64,000 bases of DNA from Neodothiora populina (Eukaryota): positions 806,001-870,000 of the forward strand of contig NW_027191402.1 in the NCBI RefSeq assembly GCF_041146345.1, written 5' to 3'. The position numbers were made by a program, and so were the translations under genes. Shown one piece after another: positions 23,530-47,979 of this stretch. The notes under the pieces were generated by a model that worked only from the letters and a program-made list of their open reading frames with translations, did no database searches and was not told the origin of the DNA. Each line of letters starts with the position of its first letter. Within the stretch, counting starts at the first letter, position 1.

Positions 23530-24375
23530 TTATATTATTGGACCGATCACGTCGCACTCACAGCCCGAGCGAAGTGCTGAAGAAGAAGATAAACCAAAAC
23601 TCTTGACTGTTAGAGGCAACGATGGTAAACCTCTCATACGACGCATGAGATTTGAGCCCGATTGTGTGTTCCGAGACGACGAATTTCCCATTGAAGCTGT
23701 AGGCCTGGCCAATTCTGGTTTGGCCTTGCGAGCGGGCCCAGTCTCTAGAGCGACTTCAACGACCTTGCGCAGACTTGCCAACGCGCATGCTTGTACTTTG
23801 TGACACTCGCCCTGAATCAAGATTGTCGGGTTCGAACTAAAGTCTTCCGAGTTTACCTGATCGAAATCAGGTGTAGCTATCAGCGAGTACTGGTAGGTTT
23901 GCTCTTCGGCTCCGTCGCCGTCTCCCAGCCCTCGTGCAGCGGGACCTCTTTCGACTGCCAAGCGCGTGTGGGATATGAAGGGAAACAACCGGTTGACTTG
24001 CAAAGCCTTCACCTGTGCCAGACAGTCCTTCCTAGGATTCACCTCCTTGTCAACTCCAAGCACAGAGTGTGCTGTTGAATTAACACTGCACTCTTCCAGA
24101 TCATCCAGGTCTCCAGCCACAATAGAATCCAGACCATCCTCATTCTCTGAAAATGGCTCAACTTGGAGTACAGGCGATCCAGAATTGTAAGATATCGCGC
24201 AATCGGAGAACTCACTGTCAGAAACTGGAGTGCTCGATCTATGACAGAGCAAACAATCGTCCGTAAGCGACGACGACAAAGTTATGGCAGGGATATCCGC
24301 ATTCCGACACGAAGTGCTTGGGTCGGCCATCTCGCAATCTTGAGTCTCACGCGCAAAGGTTTCCTGCAATGTCAT
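23530..24375 (-). CDS. Hypothetical protein (281 aa), member 1 of the repeated orphan family
   Basis: ATG-initiated ORF carrying VNRLFPF and TILIQGECHKVQACALASLRKVV. Confidence 0.55.
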   Translation of the reverse strand: MTLQETFARETQDCEMADPSTSCRNADIPAITLSSSLTDDCLLCHRSSTPVSDSEFSDCAISYNSGSPVLQVEPFSENEDGLDSIVAGDLDDLEECSVNSTAHSVLGVDKEVNPRKDCLAQVKALQVNRLFPFISHTRLAVERGPAARGLGDGDGAEEQTYQYSLIATPDFDQVNSEDFSSNPTILIQGECHKVQACALASLRKVVEVALETGPARKAKPELARPTASMGNSSSRNTQSGSNLMRRMRGLPSLPLTVKSFGLSSSSALRSGCECDVIGPII

Positions 24376-25129
24376 CGCTGACTAGTTGAAGAGCGACTAT
24401 GGCAAACGGGATGTGTTATCCGGCAGGAAGGACGATATATACGTGTCCGTGTGGTAAGCTAAGCACGACAGAAACCGGATGAAGTATTCATGGATACGCA
24501 TGCGATCGCCATCAGGATTTGAAATCTTCATCTACCAAGTACAAAACCTGTATCACAGCATGTACATACGCGACGTGTGGCCACGTCGGCCAGCAACACA
24601 AAGGGGCCAAGTCCGCAATATTTAAGCAGTCTTTTTCGCTGAAGTATGAGATAGCTGCACTCTCCCGTCTGATCATTGCTCTGTGGAAGTTTGCTTGTCT
24701 GGTGTCACAGACTCTCAACCTTACCTACTTGATTCTACAGGTAACGGTCACTAGATGCCTTATCTTCAGGATTGAGTAGACTTTGACACACGACAATATA
24801 TCTGAGCCATACAAACTTGATTTCTAGCTGCTACATGACCGGCAACTATCTGAGTATAGCTGCCGTAACACCAACCAAGTCCATACACTAGTCAAGTCCA
24901 CAGCACCATTCTGTTGCTAGCATGCAATCCTCAAGAGCCACTATATCCATCCAAGAACCAATAAAGTATCCCAACTGCATTCCCCATAGGAAAGCTCCTG
25001 TAGCACAAACACATAGTACACCAAGTAGCCAAATCCTAAATTTCTCCACCAGCCCCTGATTCAATTGGTCGAATTTCCTCATACCTCCCTCCCCGCACAT
25101 CCCCAGCCCACCACCACCACTACTGATCC

Positions 25130-26407
25130 TCAACTCAACCCGTCCTTTCCCCCACAAACAGAGCACACATGACCCAAAACAGATTCAGCACCAACAGGCA
25201 ACGAGCCAGCCCTCTTCGCCGCCCAAACCCGACTAAGCACCCCAGGAGTTCTCTCGTCCGAGACTAGATTGGCCAGACTCTTGTTCGCCAGAGACAGAGT
25301 CGGCATCCAGGCGCTTCTGAGCCAGAGGATGGTTGATATTTCTGCATTTGCTGGTGCAGCTTGTGGTTGTTCGGGGGCTACTGGGTCTGTCTGGCGCAAT
25401 GCAACGTGGGAGGGCACGACGAGTTCTTCGATTAGAAGTTTTGAGACTAGTGTGCGTTGCTGCTGCCGTTGTTGTTCACACGACGCTCGAGGTTCAGACC
25501 GGGACAAAGCAGGATCGATGGGGTAAGGATCGATAGACTCGCACATGAACGTCCTCAGATACCTGCTGCTTGGGACCGCGAAAGGAGGCACGGGCAGGAT
25601 CTCTTCAGCGCGCTCGAAGGCGTAGGCTGGGAATGCTTCATTGGGTAGATGAGCTGGGAGGGGGCTCAGCATTGTGGGAGGATGTTGGGTGCCGGAGTCA
25701 GTGGTTTGAGCTGGAGATGGGAGGATGGTGTGGCATTGACAGACGTGAGGAGGTGGTGCTGGTGGTGAGAATTGGTTCTCGAGGTAGTGAAATCCGTTTG
25801 GCTCTTCTGAAATGCTGGGATTCGCCACTACTTGACGTGTAGCTGCGACTTCTCTAGCTGCTGCTTCTTCTGCTTCACGTGCGAATGCAGCAAGCATCAG
25901 ATATTCGATACCGACATGGTCGGTTTCGGATTTGTCTGTATGCCGTGGGATTGCTTGACCCATTATCTCCGGTTGTGCTGCCATGCCCTTGGTGTTCATC
26001 ATATAAGGCGGAGACACATTCGGATCACGGTACATGAATTGTGAACCTCGCGCTGCTGTTTGGCGATACTCCATGCCACCGTTGGCCACATTCATGTCTT
26101 CTGAGAAATGTGATGTACGCAGGATCTCTGCGAAGGGTCGATATGACGGTGGTACCCAATTTGTTCCTCTTGCCGGTAACGGATATATCGAGCTGTCCGA
26201 GTCGCTTCTGATAATCATTTGCACACCTTGGCCTCCCTGATCTTGGTGTGGGTACGCAGAGCCATCTTCTTGACTTTCCCAGTCCATATGCTCACCATCC
26301 TCAAATGAGTTAGTATTGGCGTTCTCGTATTCATATATGGATTGGTCAGAAGGCATCGTCTTGCGCATCAATTTCTTGTCTCCTTGGGTTGCATATCGAT
26401 CGGTCAT
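25130..26407 (-). CDS. Hypothetical protein (~425 aa), member 2 of the repeated orphan family, with a long disordered N-terminus
   Basis: ATG at 26407. Carries CQC, AFERAEEILP, ILWLRSAWMPTLSLANKSLANLV and a terminal CSVCGG. Confidence 0.62.
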   Translation of the reverse strand: MTDRYATQGDKKLMRKTMPSDQSIYEYENANTNSFEDGEHMDWESQEDGSAYPHQDQGGQGVQMIIRSDSDSSIYPLPARGTNWVPPSYRPFAEILRTSHFSEDMNVANGGMEYRQTAARGSQFMYRDPNVSPPYMMNTKGMAAQPEIMGQAIPRHTDKSETDHVGIEYLMLAAFAREAEEAAAREVAATRQVVANPSISEEPNGFHYLENQFSPPAPPPHVCQCHTILPSPAQTTDSGTQHPPTMLSPLPAHLPNEAFPAYAFERAEEILPVPPFAVPSSRYLRTFMCESIDPYPIDPALSRSEPRASCEQQRQQQRTLVSKLLIEELVVPSHVALRQTDPVAPEQPQAAPANAEISTILWLRSAWMPTLSLANKSLANLVSDERTPGVLSRVWAAKRAGSLPVGAESVLGHVCSVCGGKDGLS

Positions 26408-26748
26408 GATCAAAGGGGTGGTCTATGAAGGCAATGCTGCTTGACCTATGGTTCGTGAATATATATGTTCTGTCTCTGGTCTCTATTACGGTAGGTGATT
26501 TTCGTGAAAGATGAGTGTACTAGAAGCTCCTCGACGACTCGAGCCAGATCTCGTTGGTATTCAGAACTGTGTTACACGCCAGTCCTCATTTGTTATTTCG
26601 TAAGATAGGAATCCGAAAGAGAACTTGAACTTGTGTTGGCGCGTCGCATTCGCAACTTTCTCATTTAGTCCTGCTGAACATGTGTATGGTATACATCACG
26701 CCTTACTACCTCATCGTCGTGATCCACCTTTGTGACGGCATACGGCGC

Positions 26749-27087
26749 ATGGCGCCGTCGCCGTCCATGACGACGAAATCGTTGTCCAGAATGCGAAAGT
26801 ATAGACATGAGACTAATTGGTCTATAGCATATGAAAGAGAAAGCAGAAAGAGGAAAAGAGTATTAGCAGACATAGATCCTGGAACCAGAGGATGGCATGT
26901 GACTGCTGCTAACATTGTATCGGTATTGAGGTATATGGATCGCTTGAACATGTCTCGTGTCTTATGTCGTGATATGCCGTCTATAGTTGATGCAGATGCG
27001 TTACATCGAAGACTCCTATATAGGCCCCAAGCACATGGGCGGTTCGAGTTCAGCAAACAATATGAGAGAATGCTTGAGCGGTACTAG
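26749..27087 (+). CDS. Hypothetical basic protein
   Basis: Only an open frame with an NLS-like RKRKR; no recognisable homology. Confidence 0.2.
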   Translation: MAPSPSMTTKSLSRMRKYRHETNWSIAYERESRKRKRVLADIDPGTRGWHVTAANIVSVLRYMDRLNMSRVLCRDMPSIVDADALHRRLLYRPQAHGRFEFSKQYERMLERY

Positions 27088-27494
27088 TAGGTTCTCATAC
27101 AAGATAGGATTTCACAGAGTAATATAATCTGAAAATCATCGGGACTGTATCAGTATAGAGCTACATTATGCCATGTAGATGTCCGTCTGACGTAGCATAG
27201 CTATGCTGATCTGGGTGTATGTCAGCAACTACTTCTTCGTCCTGGCCGTTTCCTCTGGTCAAGAAAGAAACCCGATGATCCAATTCCTCTCTTACAGCAT
27301 AAGGCAATGAGATCATTATCATCTTGGCGATTTGGGAAAAGACAAGATTTCCGATTGGTGTATCTGGGTGGTCACACCGTCAGCATATGCTATATATTAG
27401 CCAAGGGTACATAATCATGCAGCTTCGTCACATCACGAGCCCGTCTTGAGGATCCTGCAGCATGTCGAAGTGCATGATGACTTTAACTTAAAAT

Positions 27495-27959
27495 ATGACC
27501 AAAAGCCATCCACAAGTTCAAGACGAGCAGAGAGATTCCTTGCTTCTTTTTGCTATCACCATGTCCGGCTCGTGCGTTTGGCGCAAGTACATCGTGCAAC
27601 GAGACACGACAGCAATCAACTCAGACGAGCATATACTTATGGATAATGCCAAATGTGCTGCGCTGGTATTTCCCTCCAAGACGACATCAAATTTTCAAGT
27701 TCGAAGGAAGCGAAGAGCCATCAACCGGGTGAATAAAAACACACATGAAAGCACCTCCTACACACTTCACTATTCCGAGTTGGTGAAAGGATCGAACGAG
27801 GTACTTGTGCAGGGCGAATGGGCCAATTCGATTGCTGGGGCAGAAGTAAGCATAGTCAACGCTCTCCAAGCTATGCCTGCTGGTTTCGAGGGCGAGCTAC
27901 CAGTCAGAGCCTTGACTTGCAAGATTTCTGGGCAGACTGCTCGGTCTGTCGCAACTTGA
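27495..27959 (+). CDS. Hypothetical protein (154 aa), member 3 of the repeated orphan family, with degenerate Cys motifs
   Basis: ATG ORF carrying AKCAALVFPS and EVLVQGEWANSIAGAEVSIVNAL. Confidence 0.5.
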   Translation: MTKSHPQVQDEQRDSLLLFAITMSGSCVWRKYIVQRDTTAINSDEHILMDNAKCAALVFPSKTTSNFQVRRKRRAINRVNKNTHESTSYTLHYSELVKGSNEVLVQGEWANSIAGAEVSIVNALQAMPAGFEGELPVRALTCKISGQTARSVAT

Positions 27960-28399
27960 GACAGGCAGTGTAGGGCGTTGATTTGACCCCGCCAACACCA
28001 CGGGAGGTATCGAATGGCCTCGGGAATTCTCACATTGAACGCGGATGAGCGAAGTGAATGCGCTTGGCATCAGGGGTCAACCATCAAATGACAAATATCC
28101 TTTTCGATGACTGCTATGCCGATCTGGCTTGTGTTAGCCACGCACATGTTTGACTGACATAGTCCATGTATACTCGAAAGAAGAATCGTCAAAGCTGTCA
28201 GTGATGCTCTAGGAGCAGAGAATCAGAACATGCAAATGGAACTCAAGACAAAGTCAAGTTAGAAGGATTGGATAATGATATGAGAGGAGATATTTTCGTT
28301 CTTCGGTCTCGTGGTTTAGCATATGCTCTAGATTGATCAAACCTGCTTCTTGTACATAGCGCCACCAGCACCAGCCTAGCAAAGTAGTTAGATTCAAGT

Positions 28400-29517
28400 C
28401 TAAGCGGACTTTTTGTGCATGACGGTCGCCGCAGCCTAGTCCAATCAGCACCAGATACAAATTTTGGGGCTACAAAGGGATTTGGACAGGGGCGTCTCGA
28501 ATTGTAGACGATAACGTAGGAGCGCCTTACCTGGTGGTTAGGGAAGATGAGAGTATCAGCAATAACAACATTCTCCCTCCTCCCTGCAGCAAAAACAACA
28601 ACCTCGGCGATATCGTCTGGAGTAAGGGGCTCACATCCCTCGTATACCTTGTCCGCAGCGGATTTGTCACCGTAGAATCTGACAACAGAGAATTCGGTCT
28701 CTACTTGACCAGGATCAATCTCGATCACTCTGATCCGGGTTGCAATGAGCTCGCGTCTCATGGCATCGGTGAAGGCTCGGACCGCGGCCTTGGTGGCGCA
28801 ATAGATGCTACCGCCGGGATAAGGCTCACGACCAGCAATAGAACCGACGTTGATGATATCGCCAGCGCCGCCGTCTGAGCCACGAGCCTTGAAGGTTGGA
28901 AGGATGGCTTGCGTCATGTTGACTAGACCAGTGACGTTGGTAGCGAACATGATGTTCATGTCTTCCTCTTTGATCTCTGGGGCTTTAGCAACGCCCTTGA
29001 CGAGACCACTGCTACTGATCAGCTGTCCTTCGCGCCGAGGAAGATAGGAAAGGCCGCTCTTGCAGGCAGAGACATAGCCAAGGACTTACGCATTGTTCAC
29101 GAGGACATTAATGTCTTTCCATTCCTCGGGTAGACTTGGCACAAAGTTGCTGACCTCCTCAGGCTTGCTGACATCCAACTGGACCGGTAGCACTTTCACG
29201 CCCTCGCCGACCTCTTTTGTGATCTCTCCAGCGATTTGCTTGAGAGTGTCCACACGCCTTGCGGTAAGGATGAGTCTCAAGTTCTCTGGGGCAGTACGGG
29301 CAAATTCGAATGCGATACTGCGGCCAATACCAGAACTCGCACCAGTGATGACAATAGTCTTGCCTTCAATGCGTTTGCTCATTGCTGAAGACATCCTGAC
29401 TTGAGATAGACGAGACAGAAGCGGGGAGCAAGCTCGTGCGGGGTCCGATGATAGAACAGACTTGGATGTCAAGGAATTGACAGTGCGAAGGTAGCGAGCA
29501 GCTCTACGAGGCAACAT
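28400..29517 (-). CDS. Short-chain dehydrogenase/reductase, YdfG/YMR226C-like NADP-dependent 3-hydroxy acid dehydrogenase, 3 exons
   Basis: Exons 29517 (or 29394)-29090, 29008-28531 and 28435-28400. Motifs TGASSGIG, NNAG across intron 1, GSIAG, YCATK and PGQVETEFSVVRF. Confidence 0.92.
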
Positions 29518-30369
29518 AAACAGATGAAAAATGAAAATGCTAAAACAAAGGTGTAGAGGCTGGCGAACCTAGGAATATTATGATTATGGAAGAGTTGGAC
29601 TGTGTGTCATCGATGTTTGAATACACACACCCACCCCACACCGAGGTGGTCAAAGGGCACGACATCCGTTATCGCCAGATAAGGAAAGTGGTAGTGGACA
29701 GTCGGGCGGACGGCTAACCAACACACGGCAGCGATCGCTCGAGTCACACGAACCCAGCGGACCGACTCACAGTGACTCAAGAAGAGAACGCCGAAGATCG
29801 CTGCGGATTCATCTTCGTTTATGCAACGCAGTGCCGCTGTGCAGCCATGCAAAATATATGAGGCGGCAATGCATCTGGTCGTGCGACAGACGGGCCGATG
29901 CAGGATCAGATAGAATCGAAAGATTATCAAGATTATCAGCATGAAAGAGGAAAAGCGGCAAGGAGATAAAAACCGAGCTGGACGGATCAGTCGGGCACGG
30001 CCAATGACGGGCTGTAACGTTGCGTCACCAAAGCACCATTTGGCTTCGCTCTGGCTCTGCTTTGGCTACGCTACCGTGTTAAATGCATCTTCCCAGCGAT
30101 TACTAGTACATTATTAGATCCGTTATTCGAGTGTTGCGGGAATCTTTTGTTTTTCACTGTTCTGCTCTGTACATACCGACTCCAGATATCTCTCTCCTTC
30201 CTGACTTGTGTTTTGTCAGTACTACCGTCAAGCGACATGTTCTGTTGTTGTTGATTGCCATTGGTACTATCTCTCTTCTTCCCTTCGCCTTCCTCTACTT
30301 CCCACCGACTCAACATACCCGCGTCATCCGTGTTGCTCTATAGGTAAACAGCTTCACCGTACAGTAGGC

Positions 30370-32614
30370 ATGCAGGCGTCCCTGCGACAAGTCAGTCGGG
30401 GTCAACCACTGCTCCGTGGTATACAGGCAAGATCCTCTCAAGCAACAATCCAATGTAGGGCTCTGTCCCGGTCTCAGTCGGTGCGAAGTCTACATATCCG
30501 TCGCACCGCATCGTCATCGCCGTCGTCGTCGTCGTCGTCGATATACAACAAATTGACCAGGGCGCGGCGCTCTTCCGCCTTCTTCTCCACCAACCAGACC
30601 AGGGCTGCTTCCACAAAACCAGAAGTCCCACTCCCTGCTCCTGCCCAAAAGTCTAGACTTGTGCGCTTTCTCTGGAAAGGCTTCACTGTTCTCGGCATCT
30701 TTGTCGGGACTTCTTTCGTCCTTGTTCTCGCCTTCTTCGCCTATGACGCCTCGACTTACAAGGAGAACTCGGCATTGATTGATCTCAATGTCTCGGAATA
30801 TGCGTTGAACCCACGCAGAGGAGGCCCCAAGAACCTTCCCATCGTTGATCATCTGATTGACGATGATGACTCTCCCGAGAAGAAGGCGCAGAAGCACAAG
30901 CCTAAGCTCGTCATTCTGGGTACCGGCTGGGGCAGCGTCGCTCTTCTCAAGCAATTGAACCCGGATGACTACCACGTCACCGTCGTCGCTCCCTCCAACT
31001 ACTTCCTCTTCACGCCCATGCTTCCTTCGGCTACCGTCGGCACTCTGGAAATCAGATCTCTGGTCGAGCCGGTGAGGAGGATTGTCGCAAGAGTCTTTGG
31101 CCATTTCCTGAAGGGAACGGCAGAGGATGTTGACTTTTCCGCCAAACTCGTCGAGGTTTCGTCGATTGGCCCGGACGGCGAGAAGCAGCACTTCTACCTG
31201 CCTTACGATAAGCTCGTCATCGGAGTCGGTAAGTCAGGAGCAGAATGAAGTCTGCCGCAGAAACAGCATTCGCTAATCATCACCACAGGATCCACCACCA
31301 ACCCGCACGGTGTCAAGGGCCTCGAGAACTGCCACTTCCTCAAGGACATTACCGATGCCCGCCTCATCCGCAACCAGATTGTTCGCAACCTCGAAACCGC
31401 AAGTCTACCGACCACTCCCGATGAGGAGAGAAGACGCCTTCTGTCCTTTGTCGTGAGTGGAGGTGGCCCAACCGGTGTTGAGTTCGCCGCCGAGCTCTTC
31501 GACATGCTCAACGAGGATCTTTGCAGAATGTACCCTCGCATCCTCCGAAACGAGATCTCTGTTCACGTCATCCAGAGCCGTGGTCATATTCTAAACACCT
31601 ACGATGAGACTCTCTCCAAGTTTGCCGAAGCTCGCTTCGCCCACGACCAGGTTGATGTTCTCACGAACTCGCGCGTCAAGGAAGTTCACCCCGACAAAAT
31701 TTTCTTCACGCAAAAGGACAAAGATGGAAACACTGTCACAAAGGAATTGCCAATGGGCTTCTGCTTGTGGTCTACTGGAGTAGCGCAGACCGAGTTCAGC
31801 AAGAAGCTGGCTAAGAAGTTGGGTGACCAGCAAAACAACCTCCACGCCCTCGAGACGGATACGCACTTGCGTCTCACCGGTGCGCCCCTTGGTGATGTGT
31901 ACGCCATTGGTGACTGCTCGACCGTCCAGAACAATGTCTCGGACAACATCGTTAGTTTCCTACGCACACTGGCATGGGAGAAGGGTAAGAACCCCGACGA
32001 GCTCAAGATCAGCTACCCAGACTGGCGACACGTGGCCAAGCGCGTCAAATCTCGCTTCCCGCAAGCCTCCGACCACTTGAAGCGTCTGGACCGTCTGTTC
32101 GAGCAATACGACAAGGACAAGAGCGGCACTCTCGACTTCTCTGAACTCCAAGAACTCCTCAAACAAATCGACAGCAAATTGACCTCGTTGCCCGCAACCG
32201 CTCAGCGCGCCAACCAGCAAGGAGTGTATCTCGGCAAGAAACTCAACAAGCTTGCGCAGACCAGCGCCGCAATGGAGCTCAACCAGATCGACTACGGCGA
32301 CATCGACGAGGCCGTCTACAAGGCATTTGAGTACCGACACATGGGATCGCTGGCCTACATTGGCAATGCGGCCATTTTCGACTTCAACGGCTTGAGCTTC
32401 GGAGGTGGATTGGTCGCTGTTTATCTCTGGCGCAGCGTTTACTTTGCCCAGAGTGTCAGTCTGAGGACTAGGATCTTGCTCGCTATGGATTGGACCAAGA
32501 GAGCGCTGTTCGGAAGAGGTAAGTTTTATTTTTTCATTTTTCTATCCCCTCCTCCCTTCTCTCAATGAAAACTTGCTAATCTCTCTTCTCAATACAGATC
32601 TAATGAACTTCTAA
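30370..32614 (+). CDS. Mitochondrial alternative (type II, external) NAD(P)H dehydrogenase with an EF-hand insertion
   Basis: Exons 30370-31228, 31289-32518 and 32598-32614. Arg/Ser-rich presequence, GTGWG, FTPMLPS, GGGPTGVEFAAEL, AIGDC, EF-hand DKDKSGTLDFSEL, LPATAQRANQQG and YLWRSVY. Confidence 0.93.
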
Positions 32615-33876
32615 ACGCATAAAACACAGAACCCCAGGAAGATGCGAGAAGCGGAGAGAAGAAAAGCACATCACTGCGTTCTACACACCCTGCCTGCTTC
32701 CTACCACTTTCCCCCCACCGAACGAGAAGAACGAATCTGAAACGCTGTCTGCTTTTATCTTTAATTTCACTTTCCATCCTCAACCTCCTACGACCCTCCA
32801 TCAACAGCATTATCATTAGAAGATAAGCAAAAACGAAAACAAAAGAGAAACAAGAAAACAAACATGAAATAAACCTTCCTAACATTAGTCCCAACACCGA
32901 TCGAAGAGAAGATCTATAGACTAGATCCGCGCCTTGCCTTTGCAGTACATATACACGGAGCGGATGAGAGAGGAGAGCTGAGGAGTAGTAGTGGTGGTGG
33001 TGGCAGTAATGAAAGCCACTCCACGGCAACGGCAGTGGGGAGCAGCGGGATAAGCAAGCAGCGTTTGTAGCGAATTTCCTAGCATACTCTTGTACAAAAT
33101 ATGAAGACTACAACTATTGTAAAGGATCATGCCGAACCTTGGCGTTCTTGCTTTGCTTCTCTCGGCTTTGAGTCCTGATGAAGACAGCGCCTCGGATGAT
33201 AGGAGGCATGTTGATGTATACCACTTTCTGAGGCTTTCTTTCTTTCAGCCTTATGTTCCAGACCCTCATCAGCGCCTGTCAAAGACCGACTCGGAAGAGC
33301 TTATGGGATCATCCAGACTAAGTGAACTCCTATTCGAAGTCTGCATTGATCCACCGTGAAGAGAAACAAGTCATCTGTATGGAAAAGCTCCTTGACTGTC
33401 TCTTTCTCCATGCCCAGCTCAGTGCAACCGAGCGGTGGACCCCAAGCTTGTTCTTTCGTGCAGTGCGCGTGTATGGTACTGGTCTCAAGGAGCATTCATG
33501 AGACTGGTTGTTGATTGTCCTTTTTTGGTGGTAACAGACACGGTGAGCCCGCGAAGGGTAGTGTGTGGAAGGTTGATAAATTGATCCTTTTGGAGAACTG
33601 TCACAAGACATAACAGATAGTGCGAAGAGTGTACCCTAGTTTTCGTCTTTGGTCGGTGTGGGCGCGCGTCACTTGTCCTTGTCCTGGTTGATAAATCAAG
33701 GAGTGCCGATGAACGAGGTGTTCGAGGGTTGGTGAGATCGAGGTCGAGGTCAAGCTCTGTCTGTCGAGTAAGAAGGTAGGTCATACACGATTACTGTGTC
33801 ACACCATGTACGGGTGTGTGCGAGGCATATGATCGCCAGACGAGCTGTGCAGTGGACGATAACCAGATGACAAATC

Positions 33877-34544
33877 TCATGTTGCGTTTCCCTCGTGTCC
33901 TTGAGCCAGCTCGTCTCGGTCGACGTCCATCTCGTCTGCTTGGGGACCGAGGGAAGCAGGAGCAGCCGCGGAGGCAGGAAGAACAGAAAGAGTAGAGGTA
34001 TGGGCGAGACCATTGACACCATTAGTACTCTTGGTGCCATTGGTCAGCTTCGTCTGACCGTTCGTCTTTCCATTTGCTTCTTCCTTGGCTTTCTTGGCCT
34101 TGTACTCCTTGTAGGTCATTGTCTTTGGCACAACATCAGTCAGAAATTCGAGGTTATCGACTCTCGACACAGCTCCGGCTGGTAATAGTAATTAGTGCAT
34201 GCTTGACAATCACAGACCATTCTTTCGTGTGACTTACCAACATCGCGGTATTGGATGTTGCGGCGCTGCTTGCGTTCTGACTTGACGACATTGTGGGTTT
34301 GCTCGACGAGATATTGCAGGAACTGTTCCGTCGCAATGGTTATGGCAAAGGCGGCATTGTTAGAGCAGTTGGCTATATCTTCATCGGCATGAATGATCTT
34401 CTTGACACGCGCCACTATACAGGGAGAGTCAGCGGTTGTATACAATAGGAGAAACATCAAGTAGATGCAGGGAAGCTCACGTGGTAGCGACACGGTGCCT
34501 GTTATCTCAGCCGTGGGGGTGATTGGGGTGTTGTTGTAAGGCAT
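33877..34544 (-). CDS. Histone-fold protein of the CBF/NF-YC class (DNA polymerase epsilon Dpb3 / CHRAC-like), 3 exons
   Basis: ATG at 34544. Spliced product SLPLARVKKII..DEDI..CSNNAAFAITIATEQFLQYL...RRNIQYRDV...DNLEFLTDVVP. Intron 1 is 34480-34415. Confidence 0.85.
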
Positions 34545-34997
34545 TATTCTGTATTCCACTGTTTCTAGCTGTGATTTCAGAAGATAACAAGAGGCTGATC
34601 TGATGAAGTCACAGATTGCAAAGGCAGTAGCATAAAGATGCAGAGATGTATAGAATATCAAGAAGTAAGGTGTGGTGACTGGAGTGACGCTGGAATGAGA
34701 GAGCCGAGGGAGCTCAAAAGTGCAAGTGCATATACGGTATATGGAAAGAACGAGCACAAAAGCGCAAGGACAGGGTCTTACGTCGCGTCTGCTCGAGGAA
34801 GGCGCGTCTCTCCTTCCCCTTCATTCCGAAGTCAAGCCGTGGCTACAGTACCCCGATATGACCCTATTATCAGATGACAGCCGATACATGTCCACATCAT
34901 AGCTGATGTCGCTGCGCAAGGAGACGCGCACTGCCGAGAAGTAGTGCTGTACAGTAATTGATCGAATGGCTCGGTAAACCCGACAAGGGAAGCAACA

Positions 34998-37866: not shown

Positions 37867-38053
37867 ATATGTTTAGTTACATTTTCGATATAATTTGACG
37901 ACTTTACCAATGAGACATCACTTGTGCGCGCCCAATCACAAATCTCACCTTTTCATCTTGCTATAGATGAACCCTTCATATATTCTATCATTGAAGTCGA
38001 TAGGAGCGCAGATTACAAATTCCGGAAGCGTATCAATATAATTGGGTCACATG

Positions 38054-38090
38054 TGCGCGCGAATTTTGACGTCATGCGCGTCGCGTCTCA
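38054..38090. promoter_or_regulatory. Cluster of CGCG (MCB/SCB-like) elements upstream of MLH1
   Basis: GCGCGCGAA and GCGCGTCGCGTC lie about 85-120 bp before the MLH1 ATG. MBF-type elements are typical of fungal replication and repair genes. Confidence 0.5.
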
Positions 38091-38171
38091 CGCACCTTAC
38101 CACACAGCAGAACATCAACTTATAGCATTATCGACGAAAGCGCTGACAAGGCCGTTCCGACATAATCCAGG

Positions 38172-40484
38172 ATGGATGCTATGGAGGGTGTCGAGTCGGC
38201 GACAGAAGACGCAAGTCTTGCCTCGACGCGTGGTGCAAAGCGTACAGCAGCTCAAGCATTTGCCAGAGGCCCACCGCCTCCAATCCGAGCTTTAGCAGCA
38301 GATGTAGTGAACAAAATCGCCGCGGGCGAGATCATTGTGGCGCCTTGGAACGCTTTGAAAGAGCTCATCGAGAATGCAGTCGATGCTGGAGCCACGAACC
38401 TTGAGATCCTGGTCAAGGATGGAGGGACGAAACTCTTGCAAATCACTGACAATGGCAACGGGATCAACAAGGATGACTTGCCGATACTGTGTCAACGCCA
38501 TACGACGTCGAAAATCAAGGAGTTTGCTGATTTGTCGTCTATCCAAACATTTGGGTTCCGAGGGGAGGCCCTGGCTAGTATTAGTCACATTGCCCATTTG
38601 ACTGTGACTACGAAGACCATGGAGAGCAGTTGTGCTTGGAAGGCGTACTATATCGAGGAAAAGCTCACACCTAACAAGCCGGGGCAGTCTGCAGATCCCA
38701 AGCCTTGTGCTGGTAGGCAAGGCACCCAAATCAGTGTCGAGGATTTGTTCTATAATGTGCCTACACGCCGACGAGCTTTTCGATCTCCTAGCGAAGAGTA
38801 TGCTCGCATTCTTGATGTTGTGGGAAGATATGCCGTGCACTGCAAGAACGTCGCTTTCTCTTGCAAAAAACACGGCGAGTCTGGGCTGGGACTGGCGGTT
38901 CCGAGCAATGCGAGCGAACTGGATCGCATCAGACTGATCCACAATAGTCAGGTTGCGAATGAACTTATACCTTTTGAGGCTGCCAACGAGCGTTGGGGTT
39001 TCAAGTCAAACGGACTGATCAGCAATGCCAACTACCATAGCAAGAAGACGACGCTATTGCTGTTTATCAACCACAGATCTGTTGATTCTACAGCAATCAA
39101 GAAAGCGCTTGAGCATACGTATGCAACTTTTCTGCCAAAAGGTGGTCATCCGTTCATCTACCTAAGCCTGCAGATCGACCCAGCAAGAGTAGATGTCAAC
39201 GTCCATCCCACGAAGCGCGAGGTGAACTTCTTGAATGAAGAAGAGATCATAGAGGTCATCTGTGAAGAGGTGCGTGAGCGGCTGGGTAAAGTAGACACCA
39301 GCCGAACATTCATGACACAAAGTCTGCTGGGCCCGAAGAAAACCACTACACCAGGTCTACATACCCAGTCAAGCATGTCCATTGCATCTCCAGGCTCACA
39401 AACAGATACTCCAAATGTACCGCGAACACCCAAAGCCGCACAGAAACCATACGAGAACAATCTTGTGCGTACGGACTCACGGGCACGCAAGATTACCTCC
39501 ATGTTGCCCCCAGCCGTACCTTCTCCAAGCCACCTAGGCAATGATGCCCACCCAACAGATTTGAATGTCAACGTTGGCAGCGGTGACATGGAATACGAAT
39601 ACCAAGAAAAGGAACACACCATAGTCCGCCTCACAACAATCAAAGACCTGCGTGCCAGTGTGCGCTCAGAACTCCACGACGGCCTCGCCAACGTCTTCGC
39701 AAACCATACATTCGTTGGCGTGGTCGACAGCAGTTCGTCCCGGCGCATCGCGGCCATCCAATCCGGAGTCAAACTCTATCTCATCGACTACGGCTTGGTA
39801 TCTGCAGAATTCTTCTACCAACTCGGGCTCACAGATTTCTCCAATTTCGGATCCATCCGTTTCAGATCCCCTCTGGACCTCCGAGAACTATTAAAGATAG
39901 CCATAGAGGTCGAAGCTGCTCGATATGATTCATCCGCAGACATGGAGCCACCAGACTGGAACGAAGTCGTCGAGTTCACCCGAGACCAGCTCATGGCGAG
40001 CAGAGAAATGCTGCGCGAGTATTTCTGCCTCGAAATCAACGAAGAGGGAGAACTGCTGGCCATACCGTTGCTTTTGAAAGGCTACATGCCGTCGATGAGC
40101 AAACTACCTAGCTTTCTGTTACGACTAGGTCCGCACGTAGACTGGGACAACGAGAAGAAATGTTTCGAGTCTTTCCTGAGAGAACTTGCTGCTTTCTACG
40201 CTCCGGAAGGTATTCCTTCCAGCCCCAAGAACATTCTCAGCAGCAATAGCGGCGGGGCAGAAGCCACAGAAAACAACAGTGAAGAAACGAATTCAACACA
40301 AAAGGACCAGCACCAAGCGGAGTCTCTCGAGCTAGACAAGAAAAGATACAGGCTCGAGCGGTGCATAGAAAACATACTGTTCCCAGCGTTCAGACAGAGA
40401 TTGGTTGCCACAAAGGCACTCAGGAGGGGCGTTGTTGAGGTCGCTGATCTCAAGGGGCTGTATCGCGTTTTCGAGAGGTGTTGA
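38172..40484 (+). CDS. MLH1: DNA mismatch repair protein Mlh1 (MutL homolog)
   Basis: KIAAGE, KELIENAVDAG, GFRGEALASIS, DVNVHPTKREV and the diagnostic C-terminal LYRVFERC. Confidence 0.97.
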   Translation: MDAMEGVESATEDASLASTRGAKRTAAQAFARGPPPPIRALAADVVNKIAAGEIIVAPWNALKELIENAVDAGATNLEILVKDGGTKLLQITDNGNGINKDDLPILCQRHTTSKIKEFADLSSIQTFGFRGEALASISHIAHLTVTTKTMESSCAWKAYYIEEKLTPNKPGQSADPKPCAGRQGTQISVEDLFYNVPTRRRAFRSPSEEYARILDVVGRYAVHCKNVAFSCKKHGESGLGLAVPSNASELDRIRLIHNSQVANELIPFEAANERWGFKSNGLISNANYHSKKTTLLLFINHRSVDSTAIKKALEHTYATFLPKGGHPFIYLSLQIDPARVDVNVHPTKREVNFLNEEEIIEVICEEVRERLGKVDTSRTFMTQSLLGPKKTTTPGLHTQSSMSIASPGSQTDTPNVPRTPKAAQKPYENNLVRTDSRARKITSMLPPAVPSPSHLGNDAHPTDLNVNVGSGDMEYEYQEKEHTIVRLTTIKDLRASVRSELHDGLANVFANHTFVGVVDSSSSRRIAAIQSGVKLYLIDYGLVSAEFFYQLGLTDFSNFGSIRFRSPLDLRELLKIAIEVEAARYDSSADMEPPDWNEVVEFTRDQLMASREMLREYFCLEINEEGELLAIPLLLKGYMPSMSKLPSFLLRLGPHVDWDNEKKCFESFLRELAAFYAPEGIPSSPKNILSSNSGGAEATENNSEETNSTQKDQHQAESLELDKKRYRLERCIENILFPAFRQRLVATKALRRGVVEVADLKGLYRVFERC

Positions 40485-40910
40485 TTGCAGGGTTTAGGCG
40501 AAGGCAAGACGATGGTTAGAGGAAACCTGATGGAAGCATTTGTGTATCCTTCTCAAATGGAATGAGAAGCATATGCCGGTCGGGATTTTCCGGCCCTGCA
40601 CGTGGCATGTATGGAGGTTGAGTACGCTCTCGCTGTTAACGAGCAATTTGATTGCGATCAGGCTCGATATTTGTATTTGATATACCCACTTTGCTAGAGT
40701 TATGAATTACGAAAAGAAGATGTGCGATAGCTATAGTAGCTAGATGCTCGATTCAGACATTGCAAAAACGGGGTATGTACTCTTCGGACGTGGCTATTGT
40801 GAGGATACGCCTGCAAACAAAGCTTGAAAGACGAAGCGTACTACGAAAGAGGCGAAAAGAAGCGAATCCTCCATGAACATCATCAGCCAGACAACATGTC
40901 GAACCGAATG

Positions 40911-41654
40911 TCATGACGATCTCTTCAAACCGCAGGCCGAACAATGATTCTCGAATCTCCGGAACGACTCAGACTCCAAAGGCAGTCTTCCGGTGGAGAC
41001 CCGATTAGCCTTCGAGGCACGCGTAATGTTGCATAAGCTCTGCAGTGCGAAAAGACGAGAGTTCGCAGTCTCGCTGCTGATGATGACAAGCTCGTCGAAG
41101 ATGTCGCTTACTGGTGAGCCTCTGCGGTCAGGGAGAAAGGCGTTTAGCTCTTCACTGGTGGCAGTTAGATCGGAGCCTTTGCGACGAAAGGATTCGAACT
41201 CGGGAATGCTAGCGAGGTCTGATGATGAGTCTGTCGATCCGGTTGAGCATGGTCGAGATTGATGGATGCCTATTAGCTCGCATTTGTACAGCAAGTAACG
41301 GGGGCCGTAGGAGTAGTCGTATTGGAGCGAACCAGCAGTATAGAATCCGAAGCCTTGGAAGCGTTCTCGTCGGACCCCTACGAGTTTATAGGAGATCTCG
41401 AAAGGACCATGGCGGGGATGGAATATTTGCGACGCTGTCTGGAGAATCTCTTGTTCGAGCAGTGCAAGTGTGTCTGCACAAGTGTCTGGCCTTTCTGATG
41501 CTGGTGACTGTAAACATCGGCATGTGAGACTCGCAGGATTAGGAGTACGTTTGAGAAAATTCACGATTGTCGTTTCATTGGGAGATGGACCGGTCCTTGT
41601 AGTCCTTCGCAAATGCCCATGGCGTTGTGGCGGTGGCTTGCTGATTTTACTCAT
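40911..41654 (-). CDS. Hypothetical protein (247 aa), member 4 of the repeated orphan family
   Basis: ATG ORF carrying CRC, ILQTASQIFHP, LVIISSETANSRLFALQSLCNIT and a terminal CSACG. Confidence 0.6.
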   Translation of the reverse strand: MSKISKPPPQRHGHLRRTTRTGPSPNETTIVNFLKRTPNPASLTCRCLQSPASERPDTCADTLALLEQEILQTASQIFHPRHGPFEISYKLVGVRRERFQGFGFYTAGSLQYDYSYGPRYLLYKCELIGIHQSRPCSTGSTDSSSDLASIPEFESFRRKGSDLTATSEELNAFLPDRRGSPVSDIFDELVIISSETANSRLFALQSLCNITRASKANRVSTGRLPLESESFRRFENHCSACGLKRSS

Positions 41655-42382
41655 GTCTCCTGCCTACAAGTCTCGAGTCTAGGAGAGAATAGTGTTCTCC
41701 AAAGGCAATCGATGGAACCCATGGCTTGCTGATGTTTTATGTTACGAGGTCAAGCTGTTCTGACGCAAGTGACGAATATAAAGGATCTTCAGGCAACCCA
41801 CCTGTCGCACTCTACTTGGGGGCTAGTGGTACGATGGCTCGACTATCCCTGACCCATCGCAATGGGAGCTAGACCTATTACCATGTTATCATGATACAGA
41901 AAGGGATGATTACGAGTCAAGCTGAGGTGAGATATGCGGGTCAGTCATCGTTAAAGCTATTGGATCAGAGCATGCTGGTCTAGATGCAGAAGCCAGAAAC
42001 TGATTGAGTTTGGATAACCAAATGGTCTGATGCACTAGCTAGCAAACGCGGTTGATTGCATGAGTGTGTGACCTACGAGTGCATATGCTGGACGACTATG
42101 AAGTCCAATTTCCGTGGCTAAGACAATGAGGAAGTCAAGCTCTGTGACTTTCTTGGCACCCGAAGCTGGCCACTCGAACCCCTAACCTCAGACCGCGTTC
42201 TCGACCTCATGAACCATTCTGATATTTCATCTGGGGGATCGATTCGGGATCTTCCCGCTCTCCTTATCAGACCGTGCGAAGAACAGATGGTCCGGCTCTC
42301 TTATTCGAAGCATTTCTAGTCTCTGGGCTACTGTCGGGGACATCGGGAATCTGTGATCGGTACTGATGCATTGTGTGTAACC

Positions 42383-42997
42383 TTACTCCCGGGGCTTCCC
42401 ACACATGGAACATGCCCTCTCGAAAGCTGCAAGATCTCGCGCCTGCAATGGTCTGTCCCCTTGTCGTCTATTTAGACGAGGTTTCGCATTGGTGATGACA
42501 TTTGACAAGCTTGCCAGAGCGCAGCCAAGACTTGCTGACCATTCTCCTGTCATGACCTCCGATTCCGAGCAATCCTGACCCTCGATTGCTAAAATTTCTA
42601 CCAGATACTTTCGATGAAGCAGATACGCCCGGCCGTATTTCTCAGGCGGCGAATCTTCGGTCTGGTGCCTGACGACGAAGGTGCGTCCAGTTATGCGTTG
42701 ATTTGACATCTCAGCGGGAAATGGGAAGACACGCGTGGCGTGTTGAACGAAATGCTCTGGATTTTTGTGCAGTATCATATGGATATCGTAAGTCCCGTAA
42801 GCGCTTGCTTCGTACCTTGTGCAAGCGCAAGAATCCCTTGCTCCTGAGGCTTTCCTGTTGACGAAAGAGTGTGCATAAGATGGCGATGGCATGTTCGTTT
42901 TGAGCTTGTTCGTGACCGTGAAAATGCCCTCGGGACAAACATATTTATACGTCTTATTCACTATCGAAGAGAAACCACTTGGACGGATATCCTGCAT
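42383..42997 (-). CDS. Hypothetical protein (204 aa), member 5 of the repeated orphan family
   Basis: ATG ORF carrying CAC, FVQHATRVFPF, EVMTGEWSASLGCALASLSNVI and a terminal CSMCG. Confidence 0.6.
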   Translation of the reverse strand: MQDIRPSGFSSIVNKTYKYVCPEGIFTVTNKLKTNMPSPSYAHSFVNRKASGARDSCACTRYEASAYGTYDIHMILHKNPEHFVQHATRVFPFPAEMSNQRITGRTFVVRHQTEDSPPEKYGRAYLLHRKYLVEILAIEGQDCSESEVMTGEWSASLGCALASLSNVITNAKPRLNRRQGDRPLQARDLAAFERACSMCGKPRE

Positions 42998-43434
42998 ATA
43001 CTATCGAGCCGTATGCCTCAATTGTCGATCACTCGGTCTATTTGATACCTATACCCGGTGTTGGAACCGCTTCGCACCCTCCTGATTGACACACTTGACC
43101 AAGACAAGAGCAGACACCACGTTCTGGACATCTGTGGTCACACTAGAGTTCATCTGGAAGCCCTGCCTGTCGCACGTACACCTGCAATGCCAAGTCGCCT
43201 CACTCGCGGATCAATTCTTTCTATCCTTCGTACTACATGTCACAGCACAACATCTATCGGCCTTGACATTACGCGTAGAACATGAGACGGGACCTCGAGT
43301 CTTGTTTATTCGTGAAGCTTACGAGTTCACAGAGGACTATATTGAAGATCGCGCAGCCACCTCCTAGGTCAACAGCATCATACTACGGATCTATATTGTC
43401 TGCAACACAGAATATCGGCATTATCGCTCGATAC

Positions 43435-44901
43435 TTAGCTAGCCAAAATGTCTCCCCCCCAGGCCCAACCTGTGCTCTGTCGATTCTGACTTGGGTTGTT
43501 TTGAGTATCTTTGGAACAGAAGTCTCCTCGAACAGCTTGCCGGAATGAAGCATTTCAGCCACCCCTTTTGCTGCAAGCCATATCACCGGCATACCGTGGC
43601 CATTGAACCCTGAAATGGTGAACTGGTCAGGTTTCTTGGGGATGTTCCCAACGTGTGAGTTAGAGTCGAAGGAGTATCCCATGACGCCTGTCCATATGCT
43701 TTATTGCGGCACCACTGCCCTCCCATCCTCTGAAGTTTTTCTGCATGAAGTCTTGATAGTAGTCCTTTGCTGAATCTATCAAGCAACTATCGTCTGTGTT
43801 GTCATACCATTGATTGCGGTAACGTCGGAAGATGTCCTTAGCGCCGCCGACGATGATCCCGCCATCAGGACACTGGATGAGGTAGCTGCAGACACTAGGA
43901 TCTCCAGGCTCGTATACGATGAAGGAGGTGTGAAGCAACGGAGCCGATGTCCCCGGCGGCACGGCAATATGACAACATATGCCTTTACACGGAATGATGT
44001 TTCCGGCATATTCGGGAAGAAGTGCCTTTGTATAAGCATTCGTCGCATACACAATCTTGCCAGCCCGAATGGTACCGCGTGCCGTACATACTTCATGGGT
44101 ACCATTTTCGGTAGTTCTGACAAGGTTGACCGGTGTGTACGCTTGGATGCTGACCCCACGTTTGCGCAAGATGTGAACCAAGTGCATGATGAACTTGTAA
44201 GGGGACATTGTCGCAGCTGTGTAGGTTGCACAGACCTTTGCGTTCGTGACCCCGGTGATCTGTGTCCCTTTCAAAAGATTTTCTATATTTGTATCGTTCA
44301 CATGGTCACACTTACCCCTGGAGTATCTTCACCTGCGATCACCTGAACGTCATTCATATAATCTAAATTGTGACTTACCATTGCATCATATACTCCTTTT
44401 ACCATGGCCACAGATTCTTCATTACACCACACGTCGGTGACTCTGGTAAGTCTGAAGTCACAATCGATGTTCTCTTTCTGGACGACCTCCTTGAGAGCCG
44501 CGAGGTTTGCAATCTCGAATTCAGCCAGCTCTACCCCCTTGTCCAATCCGTCCCTCTCGATATAGTGAGGAATGTGTCCGTAAAGATCAGGACGAACGTG
44601 GCCACCTATGGTAGCGTCAGACGATACGGCATAAGAACTCCCTTTTATACCCACCATTTCGTCCGGTTGCACCTGAGCAGAGCCCACGGGCTTCCACGAT
44701 TGTGATTGAAGCCGCACTGCCCGCCACTAGCAGATGGTAGGCAGTAGCGACTCCAGCATAACCTCCGCCGATAATCACAACGTCGCTTGTCTCTGGCAAG
44801 ACTTCTGTAGACTGAAGATCATCCAATTCGTCCAACTTGCTACGCCAATGTGAACCGGTCGAATTTGGAACCGGCATGCCAGCCGCGCATTGGCGCGTCA
44901 T
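43435..44901 (-). pseudogene. FAD-dependent oxidoreductase (DAO / sarcosine oxidase-like family), frameshifted (pseudogene or assembly error)
   Basis: IIGGGYAG, LCSGATGRNGGH (spliced), ATNAYT, YLIQCPDGGIIVGG, WTGVMGYS and GFNGHGMP. The frame breaks near 43695 between IKH and WTGVMG. Confidence 0.75.
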
Positions 44902-46033
44902 CGTTCGAAATCATTTTATTAGTAGTGCGTTCTATTGCATGAAATGAAACACTACTGAGACGAATCCTTCTCTACGGGAATGAGGACACTGTACATATAG
45001 TCGATGAGCTTCGTCTGTATATGTTTTGTCTTATCATAGGTTCGTTATATAAGCCGCTCTAGGCAGCAAGTTGGGCTGGCTTTCGATAAGGGGCTTGTGA
45101 GCATTTCAATTTAATTCGCCCTATCGGTTCAACGGGATTCAATGGGGTTCTATGTACTCATAGTCTCATTAGCCCGGATCACTTCCATGAAGTCTGGGCT
45201 TGATATGAGAGTTGTAGCCAATATATCGTGAGTGTCGAGGGAAGAAGATCTAAATCCGGGTGCGGACTAAAATAATATGCCGCATCAGCTGCGTCCCCCA
45301 CACTTCACTCCCGCCCAAATGTCTCGCCAACCACCAGACTAGAAAAAGCGATCGAAGCACAAAATACAGAGTGATCCAGGGCATAATCTCTGCTTCCTTG
45401 TCAAGCATTTTCTCGGTCGGTGGTATAACGACATCCGGAGGACGCCGGTTCTGGCATTATGCTCAGGCTCTCCTAACAAATGCCGAAAAAAACAAGCGCA
45501 ACTTCCTCGCCAGAATGGCACATACAGCGATGATCTATAGTTACAATGTTCGAGACATGGTAAACATCAATAGAAGCCATGACCTCTGTGCATGAAAGCC
45601 TTCCGCACGCGTTTGAGTGGCTTGATTCGATGTGCAGAAGGTAGCAGAGTCGGAACATGCAACCCTGCAGCACTACGTACAAGGACGATAATTGCTGCAT
45701 CGCTACACCTGGAAAGCTAAACGTGTAGGTATGCCAGTCTAATGGTAGAGACCAAACACATTACTCTTCAATTTCTTCTTAATGTTCCTATCACGGCCCC
45801 TACGGTTCTCGATATATGGCCGATCTTATCATAGGGCAAACGCTCGGCCAAGCGCTGATAGGCATCGCGTGCATATAGTGGAGATCAATAGATTTATCAA
45901 ACGTACCTCAGCGACATCAACTCGCTCACACCACTTGCCAGCTTCAATGAGTATGCAGATACAAATCAATCATCTTCTAGCTTGATTGATCAAACCCAGC
46001 TCTTGCTGTATCCACCTTGCTACCTTCACCAAA

Positions 46034-46806
46034 ATGGGCAAACACGTTGTCTTCGATGTAGTCGGTACCTGTGTCAGCTACGATGCCTTTTTCGAAGGCA
46101 TTGACCGACACATTGGCCCACGACTACTCGAGCGTGGCATCCCCCCTCGACTTTTTGGCTTTTCCTGGATGGAGAGCGCTGAGCTCGAATTCACGTTCCT
46201 TTCAATGTCATCCAGATACTGTCCGTATGGCATCGTGTTCAAAGCAATGTTTTACCGCATGCTCTGGATGGCCGGCATTGAAGACCCCAGATCATTCGCC
46301 ACCGATGAGGAGCGAGATGCCATTGTCGCGACATATTCGGACCTGAAACTAAGGCCAGGCGCCAAGGAGGCGATTGAGATGCTTCGTCATGATGGCTTCA
46401 CTGTCTGGTGCTTCACAAGTGGAGATATTAAAAGGGTTAGAGGGTACTTTCTCAATGCAGGGGTCGACATGCCTCTCGAAAACTTCAAATCATGCGATGG
46501 CAAGGCCATAGCAAAACCTGCTCTGGCTGCGTATCAACCCATAATTGACTCGTTCGCGAAGGAGGATGAGAAGTGGTTCGCTGCAGCGCACTACTGGGAT
46601 GTAAGCTCTGCGAAAATGGTTGGGTATGATATTTCTTTGTACTTTTCGTTTTGTCTCTCCTACTTACTTGTCGCAGGTTCAAGGGTGCGTACTGCTCAGT
46701 CTATGAGAAGGAAAGCTGCGCCGAGATCTTCGGGGTGGAGATGGATGTCCTTGCTAAGACCTTGCCTGAGATGGCGAAAAAGATGATCGAAGCGTCGAAG
46801 GCCTGA
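46034..46806 (+). CDS. HAD-superfamily hydrolase (haloacid dehalogenase type II-like), 2 exons
   Basis: Exons 46034-46623 and 46677-46806. Motif I VVFDVVGT, AKP, and WFAAAHYWDVSSAKMVGFKGAY. Confidence 0.88.
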
Positions 46807-47237
46807 ATGTTGGAAAAGCGTCATGTAGGTCAGTGACTGGTCTGCCAACGCCTACGACGTAGGCGATGTTTTGAATTCATCCAGGCTACTCAAAGCCAAC
46901 GAGCCCGAGTATAACGAGTGAGATGCAATTAGACACATCTTAGATATCCAGTGTAGCCCGGCATCCGCATATGACCACATCTCCTATGGAACGTGTGTAC
47001 ACCTAGGATCCGGATTCGAAGTGAACGACAACAGCCTTGACAAGAGATTGCTTGTCCATTGTAGTCGACTTGGAATAGGGACAAACACAGTCCAAATTGT
47101 CAAAAACCAGATCTATCTCGATATCTCGAGCTCTTAACCCCTTCTTATCGGGCACATAGAATACGTCCTTGATGCCTCCCGGCCAACATCGTTCTGGCAA
47201 CGTCGAGGTACACGTACGACAAGATCGTCCACTCGTG

Positions 47238-47979
47238 TCAGACTGGTATCCAGCCGCAACGTACCCTTCCACAAGCTGTGCAGACATTACCGCCAGCGGC
47301 TAAGGAATGCGGATATATAGAAGTGCTAGTTGTAGGCAGAGTATCACGAAACCCGACCGTCTGATCGTAATCGTCTGGCATTAAAGCCAAGATCCTCAAG
47401 ACACTCTGATAGGCCCTCTGAACGCTGGTCGTAGTCTCACCAACGACTAGCACCGGCAAACTAGGATCGCTACCGGACACGAAGACATAGAACATCTTCC
47501 AGGCTAGGTTCTCCACACCACCATTCGCAACGACTTGTGTGGATGATACCTGTCTGCAATTGACCTTGATTGGCTGAAGCCCAGGAAAAACAGTCAATGC
47601 ATGCCGCACTAACCAAGTTGTCAATTCCAGCAGCGTGACTAACGAGGTTGACGACATTACTCACGAATCTCGATGCCAATTGGTTCATCCCCGTCGACAG
47701 GCACCGCCGGCGGCGGTAATGTAATAGAGGGTGGATCGCGGCAAGAACAGAGACCTGGACGTGGAGCAGAAGGATAACCTTCGAGACGCGGCCGACTTCC
47801 TTTTGCTGGCATCCACGCGTCTCTGACAAGGACGGCGGGTAATTTGGAGCTATGCCCGAATACCCATATCAGCTCTGACACTTACGCTTCTCATCATCAC
47901 AACATCATCATCATCCATTGCATCCGACTTACTCCTCGGCCAAAGGCGTCTTGGGATCCAAATCCTTCTTGATCGCCAT
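47238..47979 (-). CDS. Hypothetical protein, member 6 of the repeated orphan family, 3 exons
   Basis: Predicted exons 47979-47933, 47849-47665 and 47608-47238; introns GTAAGT..ATAG and GTGAGT..TTAG restore one frame. Carries CSC, ILRHALTVFPG, VLVVGETTTSVQRAYQSVLRIL and CTACG. Confidence 0.6.

Follow-up and report, generated by a model that had tools for sequence, protein, structure and literature searches.

In canonical double-stranded RNA-binding domains (dsRBDs), basic, lysine-rich residues open helix 2, and further basic residues that contact the RNA are found in the loop that joins strand 1 to strand 2. The ribosome hibernation factors HPF, RaiA and pY are bacterial or plastid proteins with a beta-alpha-beta-beta-beta-alpha arrangement and without the Cys signature described below. 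In S. pombe Dcr1 (PDB 2l6m), a C-terminal extension of the protein folds back on its dsRBD and gives a C-X-C motif to a zinc site, to which two loops contribute the remaining Cys and His ligands (ligand set C-X36-H-X37-C-X-C, in loops 1 and 3 and the tail). Folding and nuclear retention require this site; binding of RNA is dispensable (Barraud et al. 2011, PMC3199388). Here, we analysed a 64,000-nucleotide stretch of DNA from Neodothiora populina (NW_027191402.1 of assembly GCF_041146345.1, positions 806,001 to 870,000 of the forward strand), referred to as the window, in which an earlier note had singled out six open reading frames (ORFs) as copies of one hidden protein family. Five of them, o2 to o6, are very probably paralogues of one real, unnamed protein family, for which a dsRBD-like domain with a four-Cys zinc site is proposed. 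The six ORFs, translated with the standard code and given in window positions as are all coordinates below, are:

23530–24375, minus strand: o1, ORF of 281 amino acids
25130–26407, minus strand: o2, ORF of 425 amino acids
27495–27959, plus strand: o3, ORF of 154 amino acids
40911–41654, minus strand: o4, ORF of 247 amino acids
42383–42997, minus strand: o5, ORF of 204 amino acids
47238–47657, minus strand: o6, ORF of 139 amino acids

The family resembles Dcr1 in its predicted alpha-beta-beta-beta-alpha core, in a C-terminal extension that would fold back on the domain with two Cys for a putative metal site, and in sequence-distant ligands that would act as a clasp. It differs from Dcr1 in that its CxC lies before helix 1, its C(S/T)xC is part of the tail and no His takes part, and in that its domain stands alone, without the RNase III domain that a Dcr1-type dsRBD follows. 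No sequence similarity links the two, and Dcr1 is treated here as an analogy and not as a relative because the ligand geometry differs. With HPF, RaiA and pY the family has no sequence match in Pfam, PDB or NCBIfam.

The motif on which the grouping had been based, [GS][EA]xxx[STV]xxxAxxS[LIV], is present at all six named places; used as a regular expression, it matches precisely the six ORFs and one stop-containing stretch in the window. Dinucleotide-type shuffled windows gave 0.45 matches per window and 0.01 in ORFs of at least 130 amino acids, but this count is no independent test because the expression was derived from the same six sequences. Pairwise BLAST comparisons among the six were weak apart from o4–o5 (E 8e-5 in a six-sequence database), o3–o6 (0.007) and o5–o6 (0.013), collinear over 130 amino acids. 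For an independent test, a hidden Markov model (HMM) was built from 21 outside sequences only and run on the 490 stop-to-stop ORFs of at least 60 amino acids in the window. It recovered o5 (E 1.7e-35), o4 (1.4e-31), o3 (6.1e-17), o6 (1.6e-14) and o2 (5.5e-7), and gave a non-significant 0.16 for o1. When the HMM was built from the outside rows of a 25-row alignment (A2), E was 2.9e-11 for o2 and 0.58 for o1. A shuffle control, in which the hydrophobic strand and the motif were kept fixed and the remainder was shuffled 500 times, was applied to o1, o2, o3 and o6; it was superfluous for o4 and o5, since their HMM scores already stood at 105–117 bits. The real score was reached in 0/500 shuffles each for o2, o3 and o6, and in 83/500 for o1.

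On the basis of the outside-only HMM and the motif-fixed shuffles, o2 to o6 are regarded as members and o1 is left out, so that the proposed family of six stands for five. In o1, the 30-residue motif stretch alone aligns with the family HMM (4.3 bits), neither Cys pair is found at its expected place, and no homologue was found at E ≤ 0.01 in a search among proteins of 154–492 amino acids. Membership of o1 is not supported by its sequence and its motif match is at chance level; given its location, it could possibly be a far-decayed relative. For the set as a whole, the explanation that the likeness is accidental, or that the ORFs are not genes, has only a very remote chance of being right. It suits o1, with its HMM values of 0.16–0.58, its many equally good shuffles and its lack of homologues, and the weak codon bias of all six ORFs counts in its favor. 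For o2 to o6 it is already refuted by the search of representative proteins described below, by the outside-only HMM (5.5e-7 to 1.7e-35) and by the shuffles, none of which matched in 500. A signature kept across sequences at 17–40% identity and confident fold predictions also stand against it.

Relatives outside the window define the family. Two outside homologues of o5 at ~40% identity keep its CxC, FP, GEWSASLG and CSMCG; with one outside protein, P0001, the identity to o5 is 41% (E 1.7e-24). A profile (A1) made of o5, its two homologues, o4, o6 and the C-terminal part of o2 was searched against 1.84 billion representative proteins and gave 24 matches at E ≤ 1e-3. Twenty of these were kept, and the entire family architecture is common to all of them; P0008, P0011, P0015 and P0021 (1459–2479 amino acids, 12–21 matched stretches), which looked like low-complexity matches, were dropped uninspected. 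A word-indexed second search with alignment A2 added 13 proteins. All named members are “hypothetical proteins” of Aureobasidium melanogenum, A. pullulans or Delphinella strobiligena. Judged by these matches, the family is fungus-specific, with named members all from Dothideales (Aureobasidium, Delphinella). In one member, P0005 (396 amino acids), the complete family domain is present twice in a tandem arrangement, and both domains have a CxC and CSAC pair of their own.

The conserved unit of 120–200 amino acids begins with the CxC, followed by a helix ending in (I/V)FP and three long beta-strands. G-E-(W) then opens a second helix with A..S(L/I/V), and a tail with LP(V/I)...F leads to the final C(S/T)xC(G)xxR. 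All but one of the 33 outside sequences, a truncated one, contain the C-terminal C[ST]xC (32 of 33). Among the 29 with a match that extends into the N-terminal portion of the profile, 28 contain the N-terminal CxC (P0036 has C-R-R instead); the two Cys pairs proposed in the earlier note are thus almost invariant. They lie 115–274 residues apart, and no His is conserved. At least 90% of the rows also keep the G-E Glu, both Ala and Ser in A..S and a tail Pro, which makes these positions near-invariant. The turns made of a hydrophobic residue, F or L, and P, which had also been pointed out before, share one alignment column in o2 to o6. In the window, the Cys pairs read CQC/CSVCG in o2, CRC/CSACG in o4, CAC/CSMCG in o5 and CSC/CTACG in o6, as stated originally. 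Both pairs are found in o2, o4 and o5 as they stand, and in o6 only via a proposed intron, with its CSC upstream of the ORF. Outside the conserved unit, the N-terminal extensions of o2 and of P0014, P0017 and P0019 are long and strongly acidic, with a net charge of −11 to −22, and in most other subfamilies the N-termini or tails are basic and rich in Pro, Ser and Lys.

The view that the ORFs belong to no named family was borne out by the libraries. In Pfam, no family was matched at E ≤ 1 by the six ORFs apart from noise on o1 (DUF6333, E 0.14), and a scan of 25 members assigned none; a match of HipA_2 to 2 of the 25 (E 0.008) was likewise rejected as noise. NCBIfam gave 0 families for the 35 members scanned, and a sequence search of PDB chains gave 0 matches at E ≤ 10. 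In the ESM Atlas, the o5 query gave only matches of at most 0.82 and the P0030 query no usable match. No description of the family was found in the literature. The family is previously unnamed and undescribed, as judged from these literature searches and the sequence libraries.

To obtain a predicted structure, AlphaFold was run on residues 45–204 of o5 with a 25-row alignment and on P0016 with a 35-row alignment. The o5 model reached a predicted local distance difference test (pLDDT) value of 86.2 and a predicted template modelling (pTM) score of 0.80, with helix 1 at 36–46, strands at 58–71, 82–94 and 100–106, helix 2 at 113–126 and an ordered tail (pLDDT ≥ 90). The P0016 model (pLDDT 89.0, pTM 0.82) has helix 1 at 23–36, strands at 45–57, 64–76 and 80–84, helix 2 at 91–105 and again an ordered tail. 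Both models have an alpha-beta-beta-beta-alpha core with the same element order and a confidently placed C-terminal tail, and this predicted core agrees with the domain that had been guessed from the letters. The best structural matches of both were dsRBDs, with 69–85 residues aligned; they were consistent but weak, with Z at most 5.2, and the tool warns that such values can reflect a common arrangement alone. The shape of the domain is predicted to be dsRBD-like.

The chain ends in the P0016 model give an indirect hint about the Cys pairs. CHC is within the first 10 residues, a stretch with a pLDDT of 80 and a beta-bridge at residue 4 that is followed by a low-confidence linker, and bridges at residues 126 and 133 flank CSVCG. 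The bridges and the CHC stretch in this model fit a site where the chain ends meet. Cys pairs that come from opposite chain ends and are conserved as a set are what is commonly seen in structural Zn(Cys)4 sites. From the models and by analogy, it is probable that the four Cys bind one structural zinc: the N-terminal CxC and the C-terminal CxxC would jointly hold one Zn2+ that ties the chain ends and keeps the tail on the domain. The state of o3 is consistent with such a clasp, in that the sole broken copy has lost both Cys sites. Since thiol-redox proteins have CxC and CxxC motifs as well, the four Cys might instead form disulfides or a redox switch with no zinc, to which we give little credence: the pairs from opposite chain ends are kept as a set, and no N-terminus of any member resembles a signal peptide, which makes a reducing compartment likely. 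Given this lack of a signal peptide, the proteins would also be intracellular. In our reading, the domain would be a non-catalytic binding module, and its target would more likely be a protein or an unusual nucleic acid than canonical dsRNA. Paralogues would then give different specificities. This function as a binding module is put forward tentatively, at somewhat less than even odds.

Taken as a whole, a zinc-clasped, dsRBD-like, non-catalytic binding module is our best explanation of the family, with a probability of roughly 0.6. Several observations weigh against it. Codon bias is ~0 for all six ORFs compared with 0.05–0.28 in housekeeping exons, a non-discriminating measure. The folding alignments were hand-assembled and shallow (25 and 35 rows), Foldseek returned no match in PDB at E ≤ 1e-3 for either model, the dsRBD matches have the low Z values given above, and the CxC stretch of the o5 model has a pLDDT of merely ~67. 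Pfam dsrm was matched by 0 of the six ORFs at E ≤ 1 and by 0 of 25 members at E ≤ 0.1, and the domain, with a median isoelectric point (pI) of 7.1 (n = 36), has no general basic character. The aligned sequences also lack the basic RNA-contact residues of canonical dsRBDs at the start of helix 2.

The last three points bear equally on the possibility that the family is a true dsRBD that binds dsRNA in the canonical way, which we hold to be quite improbable even though dsRBDs are the top structural matches of two independent models and basic N- or C-terminal tails occur in several subfamilies. Canonical dsRNA binding appears unlikely because of the missing dsrm match, the Glu-Trp at the start of helix 2 and the near-neutral pI. 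Helix 2 opens with G-E-W-a-x-S, an invariant Glu and then Trp, where the lysine-rich motif would be expected, and the loop between strands 1 and 2 is variable in length and sequence. Further differences from canonical dsRBDs (PF00035; HYL1, DRB4, PKR, Staufen, RNase III), beyond the lack of a profile match and the Glu-Trp in place of basic residues, are the much longer strands of 13–14 residues, about twice the length of those in the matched dsRBDs, an extra N-terminal segment, an ordered tail of 30–40 residues and the four-Cys signature. The preferred reading is accordingly one of dsRBD-like shape and not of canonical RNA binding.

The copies in the window differ in their state. Their parts are as follows:

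25133–25780, minus strand: family domain of o2, the C-terminal ~215 amino acids, with CQC and CSVCG, preceded by a long acidic N-terminal extension
27884–27973, plus strand: frameshifted tail of o3, the family C-terminal segment (...DCSVCR...) in the other frame; HMM E 7e-4 to 9e-4
40911–41654, minus strand: o4, with CRC and CSACG; a long insertion separates predicted strands 2 and 3
42383–42997, minus strand: o5, with CAC and CSMCG; residues 45–204 are the modelled part
47238–47608, minus strand: last exon of o6, from the FP turn to CTACG, stop codon included
47609–47664, minus strand: proposed intron of o6, 56 nucleotides, GT..AG; the splice is in frame and stop-free
47665–47812, minus strand: proposed first coding exon of o6, ATG at 47812, CSC at 47741–47749

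The o4 protein shares 45% identity with P0007 and 41% with P0004, a hypothetical protein of Delphinella. For o3, the identity to P0016 is 48% over 86 amino acids in a single frame, but the CxC column reads C-V-W (with a TGG codon) and the DNA has a one-base frame shift near 27910–27915. The last 28 residues of P0016 (109–136, including CSVCG) match the other frame at 27884–27967 (tblastn E 8e-5), so that both putative metal-ligand pairs are affected. Because of the CxW and of the frame change that puts CSVC out of frame, o3 (27495–27973) looks like a decaying copy or pseudogene, or else carries an assembly error; it is a relative, as first supposed, but not an intact gene.

The o6 protein is 50% identical to P0024. 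The ORF upstream of it contains ...PGLCSCRD..., which is near the ...LCKCRD... of an Aureobasidium subfamily, and we propose from the sequence that this CSC joins o6 through the predicted 56-nucleotide intron. In the spliced form, o6 scores 62.0 bits with the HMM instead of 51.8, and its match extends over the CxC column. The proposed start codon, ATG 47812, seems to fit the family better than the outer limit at 47979, since the resulting N-terminus resembles those of the P0018 subfamily.

Two further candidates for copies were not accepted. A tblastn match at 44543–44692 on the plus strand (E 1e-4) was rejected; it has a stop codon, is antisense to the DAO gene and is unseen by the HMM. At ~32950–33110 on the minus strand, with CRC at 33034, a stretch reading ...P..P.CRCR... 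and then a helix-like L..LIR.VY matches the N-terminal part of the profile only (E 0.17), and is not counted as a family copy. It lies beside the histone-fold gene, on the same strand and in the same slot as the member of the metagenome locus described below, and may be the relic of a lost copy or a product of chance.

The history of the copies was analysed with a maximum-likelihood tree of 35 rows, which left out o1, P0037 (truncated), P0026 and P0002 (near-duplicate or fragment) and P0038–P0048. No window copy is the nearest relative of another; all five have outside partners, with supports of 82–100. In the tree, o2 groups with P0014, P0017 and P0019 (99/98), o3 with P0016 (94/95), o4 with P0007 (99/92) and o6 with P0024 (100/99), and o5 falls within the group of P0001, P0003, P0006, P0012 and P0020 (82/80). 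No DNA repeats were found between or around the copies. As the copies group with outside sequences and no DNA repeats lie between them, the duplications are judged to be old; this tree and the 20–24% identity of the window copies to o5 agree with the earlier picture of an old, highly diverged family. Shared longest-contig figures of P0010 and P0016 (6626 bases) and of P0020 and P0024 (9337 bases) hint that other genomes, too, have two paralogues together on a single short contig.

The window is a fungal chromosome segment rich in housekeeping genes, according to a Pfam scan of its long ORFs. It runs from a KTR-type mannosyltransferase through PAT1, VPS15, GMP synthase, an alpha/beta hydrolase and a HeLo-domain gene to o1, o2 and o3; after these come a short-chain dehydrogenase, an NDH2-type dehydrogenase, a histone-fold protein, a ClC channel and MLH1, then o4 and o5, and finally a DAO-type oxidoreductase, a HAD hydrolase, o6, a PP2A-like phosphatase and Npa1. 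The HeLo gene, named before as a neighbour, is real:

21224–22405, minus strand (21221–22324 in a second delimitation): HeLo-domain gene, PF14479, E 3.4e-21, ~1.2 kb from o1

It is the sole defence-type domain near the family copies and adjoins o1; such adjacency to one copy proves nothing on a defence role. In a public sequencing run, 8 short DNA contigs (153–307 bases), all at least 99% alike, matched window positions 23400–43399 at low depth and without differences, which indicates that the same or a near-identical organism was present at low depth in the sample of that run.

A scan of metagenomes with alignment A3 found one locus (L001) with a single family member. There, the member lies beside a block of the histone-fold gene, ClC and MLH1 that is collinear with window positions 34078–40484, with 77–89% amino-acid identity in the strong tblastx pieces, and the similarity ends at the block edges. 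The member stands on the histone-fold side in this locus, and o4 and o5 stand on the MLH1 side in the window. This single comparison supports variable slots between conserved genes as the places that the copies occupy, in keeping with the non-conserved islands suggested earlier.

Different slots beside conserved synteny in two genomes are also what would be expected if the family were a fast-evolving conflict or defence family (allorecognition, toxin-antidote, anti-viral RNA sensing) with the array as specificity variants. Orthologue-like pairs are just 40–50% identical compared with the 77–89% of the neighbouring housekeeping genes at L001, but this comparison mixes different taxa. The decay of one copy and the predicted dsRBD-like fold point in the same direction, as does the HeLo-domain gene ~1.2 kb from o1, although that gene adjoins o1 alone, the unsupported ORF. 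No known defence or incompatibility domain is present in any member (25 scanned in Pfam, 35 in NCBIfam), and the copies are interspersed with housekeeping genes and without repeats. On balance, a defence family is unlikely. A bolder and speculative reading, which we regard as doubtful, is that of an undescribed stand-alone domain class, dsRBD-like and Zn(Cys)4-clasped, in which the old Dothideales paralogue array would represent specificity variants of one recognition function, evolving by turnover in variable slots between housekeeping genes; this would serve, e.g., the sensing of structured or viral RNA or of partner proteins in a conflict or regulatory pathway.

For annotation of the window, o3 should be flagged as a likely pseudogene, o6 as having a missed intron (predicted), and o1 should not be annotated as a member. 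The wider importance of the family hinges on finding its function, because the named members are confined to Aureobasidium-type fungi. What were five anonymous ORFs now form a definable family that has a diagnostic signature and a confidently predicted fold and offers a testable structural-zinc hypothesis. If the clasp is true, it would be a second zinc-stabilised dsRBD-like architecture beside that of Dcr1, with a different ligand geometry.

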